A stretch of 64,000 nucleotides of DNA from Ilumatobacteraceae bacterium (GCA_049433485.1 JBMTEX010000001.1:2688-66687); one strand, 5' to 3'; counted from the first letter of the stretch, positions 49,829 through 61,102 are shown. The notes: generated by a model from the letters alone, not told the origin. Program-made: numbers and translations.

Positions 49829-50785
49829 CTACTTGATCCACTGAAGCAGATCAACTTGCACTCGAGTGAGTGGTTGTTGAACATCAATCCATTCACCAAT
49901 GCTTGGGCGGGGCCGGCCCCTGGCAACAAACAACATTGACGTATGCATATGCGGAGATTCCAGCATGTTCAAGCGTTGGCGCTGATAGTGAAATGGACTT
50001 CTGCCGTCTGGAAGCGGGAAAACTCCATGTGCAGTTCCACAACCAACAAGAACGATTTCGCCTGGCCCGTCCACCTTTACTTGTCGATATCCAGCGCGTG
50101 AACCAGACTCAATGGGGTGATGGTCAACAACATCTGCAGACAACTGCATCATTGATTTATCGCCGTGCCAGAGTGACGTGCCAAGACGAATACGAAAATC
50201 TACATCAGGATGATCTTGTCTCAATTTGGAATAGAGCTGTGCATTGAGGTGGCTGAGGTAAACGGGCACGTTCTTGTTGAGCAATGGTAACCACGCTTCA
50301 ATTTCTTTGATGTGCTGAAGTGGGTCACCCTCTAGTGGTGGATGAAGTGAAAACCCTCGAAGGCTGATGCGGGCTGCCGCAATGTCTGACAACAACGATT
50401 CCAACGTGTCAGGTGATACGCCGTACCTCATCATTGATGATTGAAGTTTCACAATGACGTCGCCCGTCCAGCCAGCGGTGGACAATGCCACGACGTGATG
50501 AGGTGAACCCACCGTGAGGATGGTGTTGAGCGGAAGATTCTTTGGTGGTGGAGTCAGCGTGGGAGTGAGAACAATGGGGGTGACATTCGGGGGAATGTCG
50601 CGAACCTCAAAAACTGTTCCCACAGCAAGTTCTCGCGATAATTGACCAGCCAGCGGCATGAGATTCCATCTGCGGAAGCCATAGCCGTTCCCCTTGACAA
50701 CTGGAACAAGACCTGGATGTTGCCGAGCAATGCCTTGAACATGAGAGAGCCACTTAGCTTCATGCACCGCGAGTCGAATTGTCAC
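49829..50785 (-). CDS. alanine racemase-fold (fold-type III PLP) protein
   Basis: VVKGNGYGF (PLP-lysine block), SSMMRYG, RLGTSLWHG and HMHTSM resemble Alr blocks. The GTG at 50785 lies 2 nt after the mftF stop. The 135-codon upstream extension in the ORF track overlaps mftF in another frame. Confidence 0.6.
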   Translation of the reverse strand: MTIRLAVHEAKWLSHVQGIARQHPGLVPVVKGNGYGFRRWNLMPLAGQLSRELAVGTVFEVRDIPPNVTPIVLTPTLTPPPKNLPLNTILTVGSPHHVVALSTAGWTGDVIVKLQSSMMRYGVSPDTLESLLSDIAAARISLRGFSLHPPLEGDPLQHIKEIEAWLPLLNKNVPVYLSHLNAQLYSKLRQDHPDVDFRIRLGTSLWHGDKSMMQLSADVVDHHPIESGSRAGYRQVKVDGPGEIVLVGCGTAHGVFPLPDGRSPFHYQRQRLNMLESPHMHTSMLFVARGRPRPSIGEWIDVQQPLTRVQVDLLQWIK

Positions 50786-50787
50786 CC

Positions 50788-52158
50788 CTATGACCGTAGT
50801 CGCAATGGAGACCTTGTAATTGTCGGAATGAGACAACGAAGCGAACGCAAACGTAGGGCACCCCACCACACGCCAGTTCCGTACGCGAGGTTGTCGAAGA
50901 TACGAAGTCCCATGTAACCGAAGATGCGTTCGGGCTTGTGCCGAACCAGCCCGTACACCGCAGGTATGAGAAGGCTGGCAAAAAGGGCGAAACCGGCACT
51001 GAACGAGAACAGAGCGAGGACAAAAAAGATTGGCCACCATGCGCGAGCGATTGCCGATGCGAGAAGTCTGATGGTGGATGCGAGGCCCTGCGTGGTGATA
51101 CGGGCTCGTTGATTCAGCGACAGCCCAGAACGACGAAGAGTGAGGAGGTACCACAGGTGAACAAGTGGCAAGAGTGGGAGAAAGACCCACACGTAGCCAA
51201 ACAAGAGCGCAATGGCCGGAAGCAACAGCACAATGTTTGCTCGAAGTGGAGAAACATATGAACGATGGGATGCGCTTAACGCAGCAGCACTTGAGCCGTA
51301 CCCGAATCGTTGTTTCAGTAATTCGCGCACCGTCATACGAGTTTCATGTGTGCAGGTCAGTGTGGGTTCGTATCGGCAGATGTGACCAGCATCTGTCATG
51401 CGCCATACGAAATCAACGTCTTCTCCCATGCGCATGTTGTCTGTGAATCCGCCGATGTGTCGAACTACATCAGTGCGACAGACGAGCGCCGCGGCCGGAA
51501 CATAAGGCACACGAGAAAATGGTCGGATGAGCGCAGGGTCGTTTCCTAAATCGAGAGGCGAGTGGTGCGCGTCGTATTCACCAGTGAGTCGACCATTGTC
51601 GGAACTAACGATGCGTGGTGCAACAAGTGAGACGCGTTCGTCATTCATTTGAGCTGCAAGTTGTCGTAGGCATTCAGATGTGATCTGCACGTCGTCATCC
51701 ACAAAGGCCACAAAAGGAGTAGTGACATGCTGTAATCCAGTGTTTCTTGCAACGCCAGGACCTTGATTGGAGTCGTGGCGAATCACTGTGGCACCACTAA
51801 TGCTGAAAGGCTCAGGTGAAGCATCATCTACAACGATGACGGTGAGTCCAATCAGTGACTGCACTAAGTGAACCAATCGATCAAGATCGCGGCTTTCCCG
51901 AAGAAATGTCGGAATGACCACGGTGATGTCAGTTGCAGGAACTGGCATATGCCACAGGGGGTGCGCGGCTCCCGTGGCAACAAGACGGCTGGTAAGAGCC
52001 TCATGCCCGTCGGGCAACAAGTCGTTATTTTGCACCAATGTCAAAATGTCTGCACCTTTTTCTGACACTTTGAAGAACGTCAACGGCGACCCAGCGATGA
52101 GAGATAACCCGTCTGTGGAGCGATTCCACTGAACGTCTGGTCGTAGGCGAATTGTCAT
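50788..52158 (-). CDS. mftF: mycofactocin-associated glycosyltransferase MftF (GT2 with C-terminal membrane domain)
   Basis: GT2 blocks VVIPTFLRE ... VIVVDDASPEP ... AFVDDDV, then a multi-TM C-terminus. It sits directly after mftE with an ATGA overlap (ATG 52158). Confidence 0.8.
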   Translation of the reverse strand: MTIRLRPDVQWNRSTDGLSLIAGSPLTFFKVSEKGADILTLVQNNDLLPDGHEALTSRLVATGAAHPLWHMPVPATDITVVIPTFLRESRDLDRLVHLVQSLIGLTVIVVDDASPEPFSISGATVIRHDSNQGPGVARNTGLQHVTTPFVAFVDDDVQITSECLRQLAAQMNDERVSLVAPRIVSSDNGRLTGEYDAHHSPLDLGNDPALIRPFSRVPYVPAAALVCRTDVVRHIGGFTDNMRMGEDVDFVWRMTDAGHICRYEPTLTCTHETRMTVRELLKQRFGYGSSAAALSASHRSYVSPLRANIVLLLPAIALLFGYVWVFLPLLPLVHLWYLLTLRRSGLSLNQRARITTQGLASTIRLLASAIARAWWPIFFVLALFSFSAGFALFASLLIPAVYGLVRHKPERIFGYMGLRIFDNLAYGTGVWWGALRLRSLRCLIPTITRSPLRLRS

Positions 52159-52859
52159 GTTGGAGAATGTAACCACTCAGCAGCACAAGACTGCAAACGT
52201 TGTACAAGGGAATGGACATAGAGATGAAGAACTGTTTCTCCGTGTCGAGCAGTTGCAGTGCTGGGGTCTCCAAGGACACCCGATGGCGAAACACCTTTCA
52301 CGCCCACATGACGAAGGTCATCAATGGTGGCGGCCGATGCTTGAACTGAACTAATCAGATCTGTTCGCACAGAGTGTGGGGCAATGTGCAGCATCAGAGA
52401 TGTTTCGGTATGGCCCGCATGCATGTCGCCACCGGCATATGACGGCAGCGTCCACACTGAGTGTGTGATGTGTTCATAGTCCAACGCAGAAGTGATCATC
52501 TGCAATCCGTCGTAGTTGCCACCATGCCCGTTAACAAGCAAGACGCCTGCAGACCAGGACGCCGCCGACCTGCAGATTGACACCACCGAAGCAGATAACG
52601 CATCTGTACCTGTGCTGAGTCCGCCCACAAATCCATCGTGTTCGTCGCTGGCAGTAATGGGTAATAGTGGGGCGCGCAGAAAGTCTTCGGTGTTGATATC
52701 AGGATGATTGAACGCATCATCAACAACTCGAGAAACAATCACGCTGTCTGTGTCCAACGGGAGATGTGGCCCATGTTGCTCCCATGAACCAAGTGCTAAG
52801 ACGAGAATCTTCTTTCCATGTGGAATCTCAATGGACGTTGGTGTCCGATTGTTAATCAT
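52155..52859 (-). CDS. mftE: mycofactocin peptidase MftE (creatininase family)
   Basis: LGSWEQHGPHLPLDTD, LLVNGHGGN and MHAGHTETS creatininase metal-site motifs. ATG 52859 overlaps the dedA stop by 8 nt. Confidence 0.8.
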   Translation of the reverse strand: MINNRTPTSIEIPHGKKILVLALGSWEQHGPHLPLDTDSVIVSRVVDDAFNHPDINTEDFLRAPLLPITASDEHDGFVGGLSTGTDALSASVVSICRSAASWSAGVLLVNGHGGNYDGLQMITSALDYEHITHSVWTLPSYAGGDMHAGHTETSLMLHIAPHSVRTDLISSVQASAATIDDLRHVGVKGVSPSGVLGDPSTATARHGETVLHLYVHSLVQRLQSCAAEWLHSPT

Positions 52860-53475
52860 GGTGCGATGGCGACTTTTTCCCGCGAACGTAACGAATGATT
52901 TCAAGAATAATGGTGGCACCTATTGCCAGTGAGAATGCAACCAAGAATGCCTTGGTGTGATTGTCTTCAAATGTGCGTCCACCAATGAAGCCAAGCATGG
53001 TGGCGTACGTTGCCCAAATGGCTGCTGCAATTGCAGACCACTTCATAAACCATTTCGTTGATTGTCCAGTGATACCGCATGTGAGTGTGACGATGGTGCG
53101 ACCACCAGGCACAAAACGCGCGGTAATGAGAAGTTCGCCACCGCGGGTTTCAATTTGTTTATGCGCCCACTGCAAGCGTTGTCGACCCTTGTTGCTCTTG
53201 TTGTATCTACGTTGTAGTCGTTCCGAAAAGAACACTCCAATGTGGTAGCTGAAGTTGTCACCAGCAAATGCGCCAAGACCTGCAAAAAGAATGACGAGCG
53301 ACCAATGAAGTTCATGTAGTCCGGCCGCGACGCCACCAATGATGACCATTGTTTCGCTTGGAACGATGGGAAAGAATGAATCGAGAAATGCGATAGACAA
53401 CAGCACTACATAGAACCATGGTGAGCTGGAGTAGTCCTTCAGCCAATCAAATGCGGAATTGACAAAATCCAGCAT
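52852..53475 (-). CDS. DedA family (VTT/SNARE-associated domain) membrane protein
   Basis: FLDSFFPIVPSETMVIIGG and ITARFVPGGRT blocks are typical of DedA. ATG 53475. Confidence 0.75.
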   Translation of the reverse strand: MLDFVNSAFDWLKDYSSSPWFYVVLLSIAFLDSFFPIVPSETMVIIGGVAAGLHELHWSLVILFAGLGAFAGDNFSYHIGVFFSERLQRRYNKSNKGRQRLQWAHKQIETRGGELLITARFVPGGRTIVTLTCGITGQSTKWFMKWSAIAAAIWATYATMLGFIGGRTFEDNHTKAFLVAFSLAIGATIILEIIRYVRGKKSPSHHD

Positions 53476-53479
53476 GTGG

Positions 53480-54070
53480 TTAGTGGGCGCTACCAGTGAC
53501 TGGTGGTTCGCTTCCGCTGAGAAGTCGTTTGATATTCGAGAGGTGGCGAATCTCAATGAGTAAGCCCAGCCCAACAAATGCGAGCACTTCCCATGCGGGC
53601 TTGTCGGTGATGATCAACAACACAACAACTAGCGGGACGATAGCGATGGAGGCAATGGACGCCTTCTTCGACAACATCATGATGGCAACCCAACTCACTG
53701 CAGCAATGATCATGATGACGGGGTGCAAAGCAAGTAGAACTCCGCCGCCAGTAGCGATTCCTTTGCCACCTTTAAAACTACGAGTGACAGGGAAGATATG
53801 ACCAACGATTGCCATCGCGCCGCAGATATATGCACTGGGGCGGTGGCCAATCAGCAGGAGAGTAGGGATAGCGCCTTTGGCGGCATCAAGAACGAACACC
53901 AGCGAGCCATATTTCCAGCCAAGTGCTCGTGCAACATTGCTGGCACCTGGATTACCAGACCCAAATGAGGTGATGTCCACACCTTTTGCACGAGCGATGA
54001 CAATTGCGCTTGGCAACATGCCGAGTATGTATGCGCCGACGATTCCCAGAACAAGATTCAGAACGTTCAC
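53480..54070 (-). CDS. plsY: glycerol-3-phosphate acyltransferase PlsY
   Basis: GSGNPGASNVARALG, LDAAKGAIP and HIFPVTRSFKGGKGIATGGG motifs. The GTG at 54070 shares GTGA with the mftC stop. Confidence 0.8.
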   Translation of the reverse strand: MNVLNLVLGIVGAYILGMLPSAIVIARAKGVDITSFGSGNPGASNVARALGWKYGSLVFVLDAAKGAIPTLLLIGHRPSAYICGAMAIVGHIFPVTRSFKGGKGIATGGGVLLALHPVIMIIAAVSWVAIMMLSKKASIASIAIVPLVVVLLIITDKPAWEVLAFVGLGLLIEIRHLSNIKRLLSGSEPPVTGSAH

Positions 54071-55182
54071 GCGTTGACCTTCTTGCGTGCTGGCTTTGAG
54101 TGGTCCATTGATGGGCGAGGAAGAATGGCAACGGGCGTAGATGCCAAATATTCTTCGCCATCTCCGCCAACGCATTCGGGGTCTGGGCCATCTAGTGGGA
54201 TGCCCGTGAAGAATTTCGCCGCCATGCATCCGCCTTGGCATGCATCAAACGAGCCACATGATGCGCATGCGCCAGCGCTTTGTGGTTCGCGAAGTTCAGT
54301 GAACAGAGCAGACTCTCGCCACACTTTTGTGAAACCACCGTTGTCGAGAACCGACCCGGCCTTGAACTGATCGTGAATGACGAATGGGCAGGCGTACACA
54401 TCACCAAGTGGATCAATGAGACATACCACGCGCCCTGCTCCACACATGTTGAGGCCAGGCAATGATTCCCCGAATGCATTTAGATGGAAGAAAGAATCTC
54501 CCGTGAGTACGTTCTCACCGTGTGCCAACAACCAGTCGTAAATCTGTCGTTGTTGTGCATTGGTGGGGTGTAGTTCATTCCATGTGTCTGCACCGCGACC
54601 TGCAGGTCGCAAACGCGTGATGCGAAGTTGTGCACCATATGAATCCGCAAGGGCTTTGAAATCGTCTAGTTGATCAACGTTGTGTCGTGTAACAACAACG
54701 GAAATCTTGAATTGACCAAATCCAGCATCACGCAAGTTCTCCATAGCGCGAATAGCGGTGTCGTACGAGCCGGCGCCACGCACTGCATCGTTCACTTCTG
54801 CCGTGGTGCCGTCCAAGCTGAGTTGAATGTCGAGATAATCCAATGCTGCGAGTCGCTCGGCATTCTTCTTGTCAATGAACGCACCATTTGTTGAGAACTT
54901 CACGCCGATTCCATTTGCAATGGAATGTTCCAGAATCTCAAAGAAGTCGCGACGAACCATTGGCTCACCGCCACCGATGTTGATGTAGAAGACTTGTAAA
55001 TCTCGCAACTCGTCGAGGACAGCTTTTGCTTGTTCCGTGGAAAGTTCTCGCGGGTCTCGCTGACCGCTACTAGACAAACAGTGGACGCACTCGAGGTTGC
55101 ATGCGTATGTCAGTTCCCATGTGAGACAGATGGGCGCATCGAGGCCCGACTTCATTTGTTGAACAAGTGATTCAGCGGACAC
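54067..55182 (-). CDS. mftC: mycofactocin radical SAM maturase MftC (SPASM domain)
   Basis: GLDAPICLTWELTYACNLECVHCLSSSG is almost identical to mycobacterial MftC. C-terminal Cys-rich SPASM region (CGAGRVVC ... CPF ... CASCGSFDACQGGC). Confidence 0.92.
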   Translation of the reverse strand: MSAESLVQQMKSGLDAPICLTWELTYACNLECVHCLSSSGQRDPRELSTEQAKAVLDELRDLQVFYINIGGGEPMVRRDFFEILEHSIANGIGVKFSTNGAFIDKKNAERLAALDYLDIQLSLDGTTAEVNDAVRGAGSYDTAIRAMENLRDAGFGQFKISVVVTRHNVDQLDDFKALADSYGAQLRITRLRPAGRGADTWNELHPTNAQQRQIYDWLLAHGENVLTGDSFFHLNAFGESLPGLNMCGAGRVVCLIDPLGDVYACPFVIHDQFKAGSVLDNGGFTKVWRESALFTELREPQSAGACASCGSFDACQGGCMAAKFFTGIPLDGPDPECVGGDGEEYLASTPVAILPRPSMDHSKPARKKVNA

Positions 55183-55438
55183 GAACTATCTCCGAGCTGG
55201 TAAGCGATGAAATTGCCTTCACAAAGGCGGGCCACCGAGACTCCTCAACACCTTCTGCCACGAGAGCATCGCGCAGGCTTGGGTGAGAGGCCATTGATCG
55301 CACAACGCGAACAATGTCTGGGTGGCGAAGAAACACCAATCGACGGTTGCCGTAGTGATAGGCAAGCGCACCGAATGGTTCTGGCCGCAGTGCGACCTGG
55401 GGGTGCATCTCGCACGCCGACTCAAGGGTGAGTGTCAT
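55172..55438 (-). CDS. mftB: mycofactocin precursor chaperone MftB (PqqD/RRE family)
   Basis: The HPQVALRPEPFGALAYHYGNRRLVFL block matches MftB. ATG 55438 preferred over TTG 55486, which lies inside mftA. Confidence 0.8.
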   Translation of the reverse strand: MTLTLESACEMHPQVALRPEPFGALAYHYGNRRLVFLRHPDIVRVVRSMASHPSLRDALVAEGVEESRWPAFVKAISSLTSSEIVRVR

Positions 55439-55460: not shown

Positions 55461-55580
55461 TCAGTAGACGCCGCACATGCCGTCAATGGAGATTTCCTCT
55501 ACGAGAAGCTCTTCCGTGACGACTGCTTCGGTGGTGTCTGTCTGGCTGTCGGCGATGTCCTGGATGTTGTCTTGTTCCAT
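55461..55580 (-). CDS. mftA: mycofactocin precursor peptide MftA
   Basis: 39 aa: MEQDNIQDIADSQTDTTEAVVTEELLVEEISIDGMCGVY. It has the invariant C-terminal IDGMCGVY and an acidic leader. It is hidden inside the 75-aa ORF 55461..55688. Confidence 0.9.
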   Translation of the reverse strand: MEQDNIQDIADSQTDTTEAVVTEELLVEEISIDGMCGVY

Positions 55581-55687
55581 ATATACGACAGTACCCGCCA
55601 CGAGCCCCACTAGAGAAGGTTGGCGCAAGATGGGTAATGTCGGAGACATCCACCGGGTCGTCTGGTGGCCAACTAAAGGGGACTTCA

Positions 55688-56803
55688 ATGAAGACCAAGG
55701 CAGCCGTTCTCTGGGAAGTTAATGCTCCATGGAGTGTGGAGGAGATTGAACTCGACGCACCAGGCCCAGGCGAGGTTCTTGTAAAGATCGCCGCATCTGG
55801 AATGTGCCACTCAGACGAGCACCTCACCACAGGCGACCTTCCATTCGCACTCCCAATTGTTGGTGGTCACGAAGGTGCTGGCGTTGTTGAGCAGGTAGGT
55901 GAAGGTGTTAGCTGGCTTGCGCCTGGCGACCATGTTGTTTTTGGCTTCATCCCATCGTGCGGACGTTGCCCCAGCTGTTCCACCGGACACCAGAACTTGT
56001 GTGACCTCGGCGCTTTGATGGGTCTCGGAATGCAAATTTCAGACGGCACATCACGTCACCATGCACAAGGCAAAGATCTCACCTTGATGTGCATGTTGGG
56101 AACGTTTGCTCACCACACAGTGGTGAATGAGGCATCCTGCATCAAGATTGAAAAAGACGTTCCACTCGACAAGGCATGTTTGCTTGGTTGTGGCGTTGTC
56201 ACCGGATGGGGTTCGGCTGTGTATGCCGCAGACGTGGCTCCTGGCGACACCGTTGTTGTCGTGGGCGTTGGCGGTATCGGTGCAAATGCAATTCAAGGTG
56301 CAAAGTTGGCTGGCGCGAAGCGCATTGTTGCTGTCGACCCCATTGAGTTCAAGCGCGAAAAGGCGATGGAATTTGGTGCAACACACACTGCATCATCAAT
56401 GGCCGAAGCCTTGCCGCTTCTGCAAGACATCACATGGGGAACTATGGCGAACAAAGTCATCATGACCATGGGTGTTGGCGATGGTCAGGTCATGGGTGAG
56501 GCAATGGCACTTGCTGCAAAGCGCGGCCGTGTTGTTGTCACCAATATTCACCCAGCTTTTGAAACTGGTGGAGCAAACATGAGTCTTCTCGATCTCACAT
56601 TGATGGAGAAGCAAGTTGTTGGTTCATTGTTTGGTTCGGGTAACCCACGCGCAGACATTCCAAAACTTCTTGGTCTGTATCGCGAAGGTCAACTCGATCT
56701 TGATGGTCTTGTCACAAAGACATACCCGCTTGAAGGTATCAACGAGGGTTACCAAGACATGCGCGACGGCAAGAACATCCGTGGCGTTTTGGTCTACGAA
56801 TAA
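55688..56803 (+). CDS. Zn-dependent alcohol dehydrogenase, NDMA-dependent / nicotinoprotein-like (mycofactocin-associated type), paralog 1
   Basis: MKTKAAVLWE, GMCHSDEH, GGHEGAG and VVGVGGIGANAIQGA motifs. SD AAGGGGA lies upstream. Divergent from mftA. Confidence 0.85.
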   Translation: MKTKAAVLWEVNAPWSVEEIELDAPGPGEVLVKIAASGMCHSDEHLTTGDLPFALPIVGGHEGAGVVEQVGEGVSWLAPGDHVVFGFIPSCGRCPSCSTGHQNLCDLGALMGLGMQISDGTSRHHAQGKDLTLMCMLGTFAHHTVVNEASCIKIEKDVPLDKACLLGCGVVTGWGSAVYAADVAPGDTVVVVGVGGIGANAIQGAKLAGAKRIVAVDPIEFKREKAMEFGATHTASSMAEALPLLQDITWGTMANKVIMTMGVGDGQVMGEAMALAAKRGRVVVTNIHPAFETGGANMSLLDLTLMEKQVVGSLFGSGNPRADIPKLLGLYREGQLDLDGLVTKTYPLEGINEGYQDMRDGKNIRGVLVYE

Positions 56804-56842
56804 TCTCAACTCATAATAAGAAATTTCTCAGAGGGGGAAGAA

Positions 56843-57994
56843 ATGAAATCACGAGCAGCAGTTCTCTACGGGCTTGATCAACCTTGGGTTGTAGAAGAAA
56901 TTGAAGTTGATGAGCCCAAAGCCAATGAAGTATTGGTGAATTGGAAAGTGGCAGGCATGTGCCACTCAGACGAACACTTCGTGACTGGCGACATGGTTCC
57001 ACCAAAGGAATTGCTCGCCATGATGGGTGTTGACGATTTCTTCCCATTCATTGGCGGCCACGAAGGTGCTGGAGTTGTTGTGAAGTGCGGCCCCGGTGTT
57101 ACTTCATTGCAGCCCGGTGATCACGTGTCGGCAAGTTTTGTTCCATCATGTGGACGGTGCCGTTATTGCTCAACAGGTCGACAGAACTTGTGCAACATGG
57201 GCGCAGGAACTCTCACTGGTGGCATGATCACAGACGGCACGCACCGTCATCATGTGAAAGATGGTCGCCCTGTCAAGTTGATGGCAAAACTCGGAACATT
57301 CTCCGAGTACGCGACAGTTGCCGAGGCATCACTCATCAAGGTGGAGAAAGATCTTCCACTTGATTGCGTGGCACTTGTGTCATGTGGAGTTGCTACTGGT
57401 TGGGGTTCTGCAACAAATCGCGCAGATACACAACCTGGCGACACCGTTGTGGTTGTTGGCATTGGTGGCATCGGTATTAATGCAGTGCAAGGTGCCCGCA
57501 TGGCCGGTGCAAAGCGCATCATTGCAATTGATCCTGTTGAGTTCAAGCGCGAAAAGGCAATGGAAATGGGTGCAACGCACACGTTCTCATCTATGGCTGA
57601 AGCTATTCCTCACATCAATGAACTCACGTGGGGAGAAATGGCAGATCGCGTCATTATGACCCCTGGCGTTCTGCATGGAGACATGATGGGCGAAGGCATG
57701 GCCATGGTAGGTAAAGGTGGCACATGTGTTGTCACTGCAATTTCGCCAATGCATGAAACATCTGCAGACATCAACTTGTTCCAACTTGCAATGTGGAACA
57801 AGGAAGTAAAGGGAACAATCTTTGGCAGCTTGAACCCACGTGCAGATATTCCACGCTTGTTGGACATGTATCGCGTAGGTGATTTGAAGTTGGATGAACT
57901 CATTACACGTCGGTACACATTGGATGAAATCAACGAGGGTTATCAGGCCATGCGCGATGGTTTGAATATTCGCGGCGTCATTGTTAATGACTGA
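56843..57994 (+). CDS. Zn-dependent alcohol dehydrogenase, same subfamily, paralog 2
   Basis: Alignable end to end with paralog 1 (GMCHSDEH, GGHEGAG, VVGIGGIGINAVQGA, DPVEFKREKAMEMGATHT). A 22-nt identical DNA block occurs at 56343-56364 and 57537-57558. Confidence 0.85.
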   Translation: MKSRAAVLYGLDQPWVVEEIEVDEPKANEVLVNWKVAGMCHSDEHFVTGDMVPPKELLAMMGVDDFFPFIGGHEGAGVVVKCGPGVTSLQPGDHVSASFVPSCGRCRYCSTGRQNLCNMGAGTLTGGMITDGTHRHHVKDGRPVKLMAKLGTFSEYATVAEASLIKVEKDLPLDCVALVSCGVATGWGSATNRADTQPGDTVVVVGIGGIGINAVQGARMAGAKRIIAIDPVEFKREKAMEMGATHTFSSMAEAIPHINELTWGEMADRVIMTPGVLHGDMMGEGMAMVGKGGTCVVTAISPMHETSADINLFQLAMWNKEVKGTIFGSLNPRADIPRLLDMYRVGDLKLDELITRRYTLDEINEGYQAMRDGLNIRGVIVND

Positions 57995-59848: not shown

Positions 59849-61102
59849 CTAGTACTGGCAGTTTGAGTCGTTTGGCGGCACAACGCCGCGCGTGCTTTGC
59901 TCAATTAACACCTTCGGCACTGTGGTAGTTGTAATGCTTTGTGCCGGTTTTGTTGTTGGAGTTGATTTTGAAGCAACTGTTGTAGTTGTTGCGATTGCGG
60001 CAAGAGTTGTGGTGGTGACGGTATTTGTATCTGCGGGTGACGCGCCGGAGATTGTTGACTTCAAGCTTGCCTTTCCTTGGAATACAGCCAGAATCTTTTT
60101 CGATGTTTCGCTCTCGAGGTCAGGGAGTATGACGGCCATGTCGTCTATTAACGTTCCTGTACCTGGCATGGTGTAGCTGCCCATGGTGTCGGTATTGAAG
60201 TTCTTCATTGCTTGACCAAGTTGAAGAACTGTTAATGGAGACAATTTGTCATCCGTGATGATGTTCTTCAATGCGGCATTCAAGATTCCAGAGGCAACTC
60301 GCGGATTTTTCTTTGCCTTCTCAAGCGACTTACGAATAACTCGCTTCATAAAATCTTGTTGACGACTGATGCGACCCCAATCTGATGTGCCGTCTGAAGT
60401 CCACTTCTTTGTCTTTGGATTCAACCACTGGTAATGACGCGAGCGCATATAAGCCAATGCGTGATCACCTTGGAAGGTGTAACAGACGCGAGCACGAAGA
60501 ACTTTGAATCCAGTTTTCTTGTCTCGAGCTCTGTACATGAATGGTACGCGCACCCCGCCAACGGCGTCCACAATTCCCGCAAATGCGCAAAAGTCAACGT
60601 TGATGTAGTGATCAATGGAGATTCCGAAGTTCTCTTTGATGTTTCTAATTAGTCGATTCGGATTCTTCTTTTCAAAGTTTGCATTGATGCGATTGCTGCG
60701 ATTTGATTCAGCTTGCCTCACCCACATATCTCGGGGAAATGACAAAATTGCTGCTTGGTTGTCGATGGGGTTCACTCGCACCACCATTAACGTGTCGCTT
60801 CGTTCGCCGTAGCCACTGCGATTACTGAATCCGCCATAAAAGGGTGAATCTTTGCTGATGCATGCGTTGTTGTCAGAGCCGGTGATGAGGAAGTTCTTTG
60901 CGGTGCGGTCACCCTCAGGAAGGTCAAGATTTCCATCACCCAGAGCAACCGGGTCGATGGAGACCACTTTGCGATTACCCAACTTCCAGTTGGCGTACAG
61001 GAGTCCACTTCCTGCCAGCACTGTGACAACTGCAAGCGTGATATTGAAAATCACAAAAGCGCGCTGTTTTCCTGAATGCTTGTAGCGGGGCTGGGTGGAC
61101 AT
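59849..61102 (-). CDS. LCP (LytR-CpsA-Psr) family cell-envelope phosphotransferase
   Basis: N-terminal TM anchor, NFLITGSD, RSDTLMVVRVNP and FPRDMWV blocks, plus a Thr-rich C-terminal tail. Confidence 0.85.
   Translation of the reverse strand: MSTQPRYKHSGKQRAFVIFNITLAVVTVLAGSGLLYANWKLGNRKVVSIDPVALGDGNLDLPEGDRTAKNFLITGSDNNACISKDSPFYGGFSNRSGYGERSDTLMVVRVNPIDNQAAILSFPRDMWVRQAESNRSNRINANFEKKNPNRLIRNIKENFGISIDHYINVDFCAFAGIVDAVGGVRVPFMYRARDKKTGFKVLRARVCYTFQGDHALAYMRSRHYQWLNPKTKKWTSDGTSDWGRISRQQDFMKRVIRKSLEKAKKNPRVASGILNAALKNIITDDKLSPLTVLQLGQAMKNFNTDTMGSYTMPGTGTLIDDMAVILPDLESETSKKILAVFQGKASLKSTISGASPADTNTVTTTTLAAIATTTTVASKSTPTTKPAQSITTTTVPKVLIEQSTRGVVPPNDSNCQY

Follow-up and report, generated by a model that had tools for sequence, protein, structure and literature searches.

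Conserved placement of plsY and dedA within the mycofactocin cluster of Ilumatobacteraceae, probably as captured housekeeping genes

The mycofactocin (mft) cluster described in Mycobacterium has the gene order mftA-B-C-D-E-F, and the same description lists no plsY/dedA-type gene and no acyltransferase for mycofactocin (Haft 2011, PMC3023750). In M. smegmatis, long-chain acyl-CoA is reported to act on the expression of mft via MftR (PMC8728441). Other clusters are of the OYE/ETF type (TIGR03996, TIGR03997, NF038209 and TIGR04503). Here, we analysed a 64,000-nt stretch from an Ilumatobacteraceae bacterium (GCA_049433485.1 JBMTEX010000001.1:2688-66687; hereafter, the window, from whose first letter positions are counted), in which plsY (acyl-phosphate:glycerol-3-phosphate acyltransferase) and dedA (DedA/VTT-domain membrane protein) lie inside a mycofactocin cluster, between mftC and mftE. 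All of these genes are known. Undescribed in the literature that we searched, where no paper found linked mycofactocin with plsY or DedA, is the family-wide location of plsY, as the only or main copy, behind mftC and of dedA before mftE. The two genes are probably housekeeping membrane-biogenesis genes that were captured in an ancestral mft supercluster of Ilumatobacteraceae, share a transcript and translational coupling with it, and were compacted later.

Based on open reading frame (ORF) prediction and NCBIfam/Pfam profile searches of the window, the gene order on the minus strand is mftA-mftB-mftC-plsY-dedA-mftE-mftF-alr-like (Table 1), and the clustered mftA, mftB, mftC, mftE and mftF all scored above their equivalog cut-offs. 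As in the Mycobacterium cluster, these five genes keep the canonical relative order and the mft genes are accompanied by TIGR03989 alcohol dehydrogenases. Unlike in Mycobacterium, plsY and dedA are found where mftD would be, no mftR or mftG was seen adjoining the cluster, and an alr-like gene (alrL) is added after mftF. The original prediction, that plsY and dedA are inserted between mftC and mftE with overlapping stop and start codons at both outer junctions, was exact. At the mftC/plsY junction, GTGA, the GTG of plsY (54070-54068) overlaps the TGA of mftC (54069-54067); at the dedA/mftE junction, ATGATTAA, the ATG of mftE begins at 52859, and the TAA of dedA occupies 52854-52852. The plsY TAA is separated from the dedA ATG by 4 nt, mftE and mftF share an ATGA overlap formed by the mftF ATG and the mftE stop, and the gap between mftF and the alr-like gene is 2 nt. 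The view that the pair occupies the slot of mftD holds for its position between mftC and mftE, but mftD has not been replaced: profile search of the window detected none in the cluster, and a bona fide copy is located on contig 26 (7300-8475; TIGR03966, 704.8 bits; cut-off, 470.85), alone among unrelated genes.

The source genome is a metagenome-assembled genome (MAG) of 1.85 Mb in 118 contigs, with 52% G+C and 86% completeness, and the searches reported for it cover this assembled part. With TIGR00023, the cluster PlsY gave full-length coverage at a score narrowly below the curated cut-off (134.5 bits; cut-off, 137.2). At residues 10-188, it aligned with residues 8-190 of Aquifex aeolicus PlsY (PDB 5XJ5; 196 and 201 aa, respectively; E 1.5e-34), the two proteins sharing the motif blocks GSGNxGAxN, D..KG, GH..PV..FKGGKGxAT and RH..NI.RLL.G.E. 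Profile search of the contigs gave the cluster plsY as the only PF02660 match, and four congeners of 97-99% completeness hold one match each. The original prediction had counted a sole plsY in the genome, combined with absence of the insertion from related mft clusters, as evidence against its own proposal, and no second, housekeeping copy was found in the assembly. PlsX is the partner of PlsY and supplies acyl-phosphate; plsX is present once, on contig 66 (PF02504, 318 bits). Four PF01553 (plsC-like) acyltransferases, with open frames of 258-477 aa, lie away from the cluster, and no PlsB-sized enzyme was found among the PF01553 matches in the assembled genome. At the level of sequence, these features identify the cluster PlsY as the single acyl-phosphate:glycerol-3-phosphate acyltransferase of the genome, with its motifs intact. 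It is very improbable that the gene is instead a neofunctionalised paralog, dedicated to mft as an accessory and acting on a substrate that is not glycerol-3-phosphate. The TIGR00023 score just below the cut-off and the extra divergent PF02660 paralogs of larger family genomes would fit such a paralog, but the gene is the sole PF02660 member here and in near-complete congeners, in a genome with plsX. Moreover, it is the best-scoring, canonical-type copy where genomes have several, it aligns end to end with 5XJ5 with the motif blocks kept, and its orthologs persist in genomes without mft.

The cluster DedA resembles the DedA family of the E. coli DedA/YqjA type in its VTT/DedA domain and its length of approximately 200 aa, and it exceeded the gathering score of PF09335 (Table 1), while reaching 62 bits, under the cut-off, with NF008102. 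Unlike UptA undecaprenyl-phosphate transporters, it scored far below the equivalog cut-offs (NF052604, 45.8 against 250 bits; NF052605, 41.7 against 300 bits), and no relative with a solved structure was found. The genome has three DedA paralogs including the cluster copy, the others being on contig 3.

A gene dedicated to mycofactocin would be lost together with mft. In eight genomes, from four genera, mftC, mftE and mftD are all absent, yet each of the eight keeps the canonical plsY and the dedA ortholog. Three of the eight were inspected: in two (L086 and L087), the order is LCP-plsY-dedA-alrL-...-ung, which corresponds to the backbone genes of the window, and in the third, LCP-plsY is retained with dedA on a different contig. 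The ortholog of the protein called 'LCP' (Table 1), located by tblastn, is directly upstream of plsY in mft-less L086, L087 and L088, and beside an alcohol dehydrogenase gene in L081. In a PlsY tree, mft-less genera g27 and g38 formed the sister group of g32, which bears mft (support 100/99). Only this grouping was used, as so short a protein left the tree backbone unresolved and the bootstrap was unconverged. Given this sister relationship, secondary loss is the simpler reading, and the data point to a secondary loss of mft in the mft-less relatives.

The alr-like gene is a backbone gene, since it follows dedA directly in L086 and L087. We considered the alr-like gene as a substitute for MftD and rejected this as unnecessary, since the genome has an mftD of its own and relatives without mft still carry the alr-like gene; it is probably not such a substitute. 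The alr-like gene was also found after mftF in all six relatives in which this junction was seen.

For the family survey, 121 Ilumatobacteraceae genomes of 61 genera were searched for mftC, PF02660, mftD, the dedA ortholog, mftE and OYE2; a PF02660 match of at least 130 bits was taken as canonical plsY, linkage was counted only in genomes with both genes, and, as the genomes are related, their counts lack phylogenetic independence. mftC was present in 107 genomes, canonical plsY in 80 and the dedA ortholog in 93. Both dedA and mftC occurred in 80 genomes, mftC only in 27, dedA only in 13 and neither in 1, and canonical plsY was missing in about a third of the mftC-positive genomes. In a class survey of 251 genomes, plsY was detected in 211 and mftC in 46, every mftC genome belonging to the order of this family, and plsY was rarer with mftC (27/46) than without it (184/205). 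The presence of a dedicated accessory gene would be expected to track mft; this was the case neither for dedA in the family nor for plsY in the class. The proposed co-occurrence of dedA and plsY with mft thus failed in both directions, as mft-less relatives keep both genes and 27 of the 107 mftC-positive genomes are without dedA.

Many Ilumatobacteraceae carry only divergent PF02660 paralogs, of approximately 100-125 bits. No PF02660 match was obtained in several near-complete Acidimicrobiales genomes (families f17, f18 and f19), some of them single-contig.

We then compared the locus with mft clusters outside the family. In 23 clusters from at least seven other families of the order, neither plsY nor dedA was nearby (0/23), and mftC was followed by mftD, mftE or OYE1-OYE2-etfA-fixC. 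Absence of the insertion from related mft clusters had been named beforehand as a sign of simple rearrangement; it is indeed absent from these 23, but conserved within Ilumatobacteraceae. Compared with OYE/ETF-type clusters, the window resembles the long layout of its family minus the OYE/ETF genes; its genome is without OYE2 (TIGR03997 profile search) and has mftD, whereas the OYE/ETF clusters of other families are without plsY or dedA. The neighbours LCP-plsY-dedA-alrL were not found at 11 plsY loci of other families and orders. As for the PlsX/PlsY/PlsC pathway, plsY in other orders of the class is, unlike here, not beside mft, dedA or 'LCP'.

Within the genus of the window, plsY was directly downstream of mftC in all 25 mftC loci, with an (A/G)TGA overlap in 17 and gaps of 1 to approximately 24 nt in the remainder. 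dedA lay between plsY and mftE in 15 of these loci, plsY was followed directly by mftE in 8, and the contig ended in 2. For five dedA-less congeners with mftC-plsY-mftE clusters, one of them 99% complete, no dedA ortholog was found anywhere in the genome, only paralogs at 22-28% identity. At the mftC/plsY junction, an AAGG-type motif is present 7-8 nt upstream in many congeners. This small-genome genus has no OYE/ETF genes, mftD on another contig, and overlaps of 4 and 8 nt.

In many other genera of the family, a long cluster was observed, in the order mftABC-OYE1 (TIGR03996)-plsY-OYE2 (TIGR03997)-dedA-etfA (NF038209)-fixC-etfB (TIGR04503)-...-mftF. Large family genomes carry the cluster as two separate blocks, mftABC-plsY and dedA-mftE-mftF-alrL; the second block of G057 reads mftD-dedA-mftE-mftF-alrL, with dedA between mftD and mftE. 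In the genus of the window, the two blocks are fused and the OYE and ETF genes are gone. Linkage within 15 kb was observed for mftC-plsY in 61/70 genomes (within 0.5 kb in 48; of the remainder, 7 on different contigs), for mftC-mftE in 20/91, for mftE-dedA in 45/72 and for plsY-dedA in 21/69, and OYE2 and dedA were within 6 kb in 40/56. The neighbourhood is conserved inside Ilumatobacteraceae only. The statement that plsY and dedA are not chance neighbours is confirmed by this recurrence, seen in 25/25 genus loci and in numerous genera across the family, and both are true members of the operon. A chimeric contig, in which assembly or binning joined mft with unrelated housekeeping genes, has next to no probability and was rejected: fragmentation of the MAG into 118 contigs would allow it, but more than 60 independent assemblies show the same order, among them single-contig G087, G127 and G135 and two-contig G055, and the junctions consist of overlapping codons within a 97-kb contig.

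In genus g71 (G094 and G133; L043/L044), plsY and mftC are on different contigs, and the g71 PlsY groups with PlsY of families f21, f22 and f28 (support 95/92), so that it may be a replaced or differently inherited copy. In L153 (G057:C15, 6213-6817), tblastn matched the dedA that lies between mftD and mftE in two segments that overlap but differ in frame, suggesting a frameshift or sequencing error.

The overlapping codons had been put forward as an argument for obligatory co-translation; an argument for a functional tie was not borne out by them. Among same-strand neighbour pairs of this genome, a 4-nt overlap is possible in approximately 19%, a 1-nt overlap in 7% and an 8-nt overlap in 2%, and a further 23% have a gap of 15 nt or less; these figures, obtained with a crude ORF-based gene caller, are upper bounds. 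Because start/stop overlaps are common genome-wide, and routine in so compact a genome, they are not evidence of shared function; they mark operon membership and compaction. Internal promoters or terminators isolating plsY-dedA would speak against the proposed coupling; no promoter- or terminator-like site was found at the junctions by a sigma-70 consensus scan, which is weak for Actinomycetota and leaves room for promoters inside coding sequence.

In conjunction with the retention of both genes in mft-less relatives, these results suggest the following course. plsY and dedA would have become embedded in the mft cluster of the Ilumatobacteraceae ancestor, and we propose that they stayed there because they were transcribed with mft. 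The whole string mftABC-plsY-dedA-mftE-mftF-alrL would form a single transcript, on which ribosomes may re-initiate at the stop of mftC to translate plsY, assisted by the AAGG-type motif. If so, the mft promoter would be at least basally active in growth and would provide growth-linked expression. The tight junctions may be the product of deletion-driven compaction, plsY and dedA having come to lie against mftC and mftE when the OYE and ETF genes disappeared from this streamlined genus. Long OYE forms and compact forms occur side by side in genus g32, so flanking mft-associated genes are indeed lost cleanly at times. Neither PlsY nor DedA would take part in mycofactocin chemistry.

Several observations weigh against this capture of housekeeping genes. 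plsY is more faithful to mftC (61/70) than is the true pathway gene mftE (20/91), and dedA keeps with mftE (45/72) or OYE2 (40/56) even in split clusters. Persistence over approximately 30 genera seems greater than would be expected of neutral passengers, and may reflect selection for co-expression. In the long cluster, plsY and dedA are at two different positions, which requires more than one rearrangement. Co-transcription is deduced from spacing alone, and the 86% completeness of the genome leaves space for a second plsY, although near-complete congeners are also single-copy. Furthermore, the linkage counts come from related genomes, which do not amount to independent observations.

The same linkage counts, outliving the splitting of the cluster, favour a functional tie, in which PlsY and/or DedA serve the mycofactocin system, with DedA in a membrane or lipid-carrier step for MftF, a membrane-anchored GT2 enzyme, or in which phospholipid synthesis is deliberately co-regulated with mft-dependent redox metabolism. 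This tie is unlikely, although it should be kept in mind. It would agree with the adjacency of dedA and mftE in varied contexts, such as mftD-dedA-mftE-mftF in G057, with the genus-wide tightness of the mftC/plsY junctions, and with the regulatory precedent for a lipid-mft link in the M. smegmatis report on MftR and acyl-CoA cited above (PMC8728441). On the other hand, plsY and dedA are kept in mft-less relatives, many mft-positive genomes are without the cluster-type dedA or canonical plsY, the mft clusters of other families and of other described taxa do without both (Haft 2011, PMC3023750), co-occurrence at the class level is not positive, and the literature search yielded no such link. In one form of this tie, mftA-B-C-plsY and dedA-mftE-mftF would be selected units, and PlsY, for phospholipid synthesis, and DedA, as a lipid or carrier transporter, would be co-expressed with, or used by, the mycofactocin system, possibly in a membrane-associated step around MftF. 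The closer attachment of plsY to mftC, compared with that of mftD or mftE, would be accounted for by this form, but we regard the form as doubtful. A lipid-linked or membrane step in MftF glycosylation or export, as the original prediction had envisaged, was not supported and remains pure speculation.

The organisms concerned belong to an abundant freshwater and marine family of Acidimicrobiia. For annotators and for neighbourhood-based prediction of function, the locus calls for caution: tight coupling and family-wide synteny need not mean a common pathway, because here both genes survive the loss of mft and mft works elsewhere without them. If plsY was captured as a housekeeping gene, an essential lipid gene depends on the mft operon, which implies that the operon is expressed at least basally during growth. 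Should a functional tie be true, mycofactocin biology would seem to have a membrane side that had not been suspected.

Two TIGR03989 nicotinoprotein-type alcohol dehydrogenase genes lie divergently upstream of mftA and likely encode mycofactocin-dependent partner enzymes. The coordinates of all features are collected in Table 1.

Table 1. Features of the mycofactocin cluster and neighbouring genes in the window
Feature	Position	Strand	Evidence
mftA, mycofactocin precursor, 39 aa, C-terminal IDGMCGVY	55461..55580	-	TIGR03969, 51 bits (cut-off 25)
mftB, chaperone; 3' end shares 11 nt with mftC start	55172..55438	-	TIGR03967, 96.1 bits (cut-off 33)
mftC, radical SAM/SPASM maturase	54067..55182	-	TIGR03962, 626.3 bits (cut-off 265); PF04055 and PF13186
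plsY, acyl-phosphate:glycerol-3-phosphate acyltransferase, 196 aa, GTG start	53480..54070	-	PF02660, 150.6 bits (gathering score 24.1), residues 13-183
dedA, DedA/VTT-domain membrane protein, 207 aa, ATG start	52852..53475	-	PF09335, 72.4 bits (gathering score 33.9)
mftE, peptidase	52155..52859	-	TIGR03964, 206.7 bits (cut-off 172)
mftF, GT2 glycosyltransferase	50788..52158	-	TIGR03965, 337.5 bits (cut-off 280)
alr-like, alanine-racemase-fold gene, GTG start at 50785	49829..50785	-	PF01168
Two nicotinoprotein-type alcohol dehydrogenases	55637..57994	+	TIGR03989, 558 and 556 bits (cut-off 440)
417-aa protein, here given the working label 'LCP'	59849..61102	-	ORF list

Among the 110 mft-positive genomes of the family, mftD (TIGR03966) and FadH/OYE oxidoreductase 2 (OYE2; TIGR03997) were perfectly mutually exclusive: 27 had mftD only, 75 had OYE2 only, none had both, and 8, mostly incomplete, had neither. 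Both types occur within each of four genera. These observations suggest two interchangeable versions of the system. The OYE/ETF module may stand in for the MftD step, or the end products of the two may differ.

More than 20 mftE matches in the family show one in-frame TGA, likely from the profile alignment running through the overlapping stop of the upstream gene. Finally, public MAG records carrying the Ilumatobacteraceae-type cluster (L089-L092 and L099) are titled 'uncultured Bifidobacterium sp.', evidently a taxonomic mislabel.

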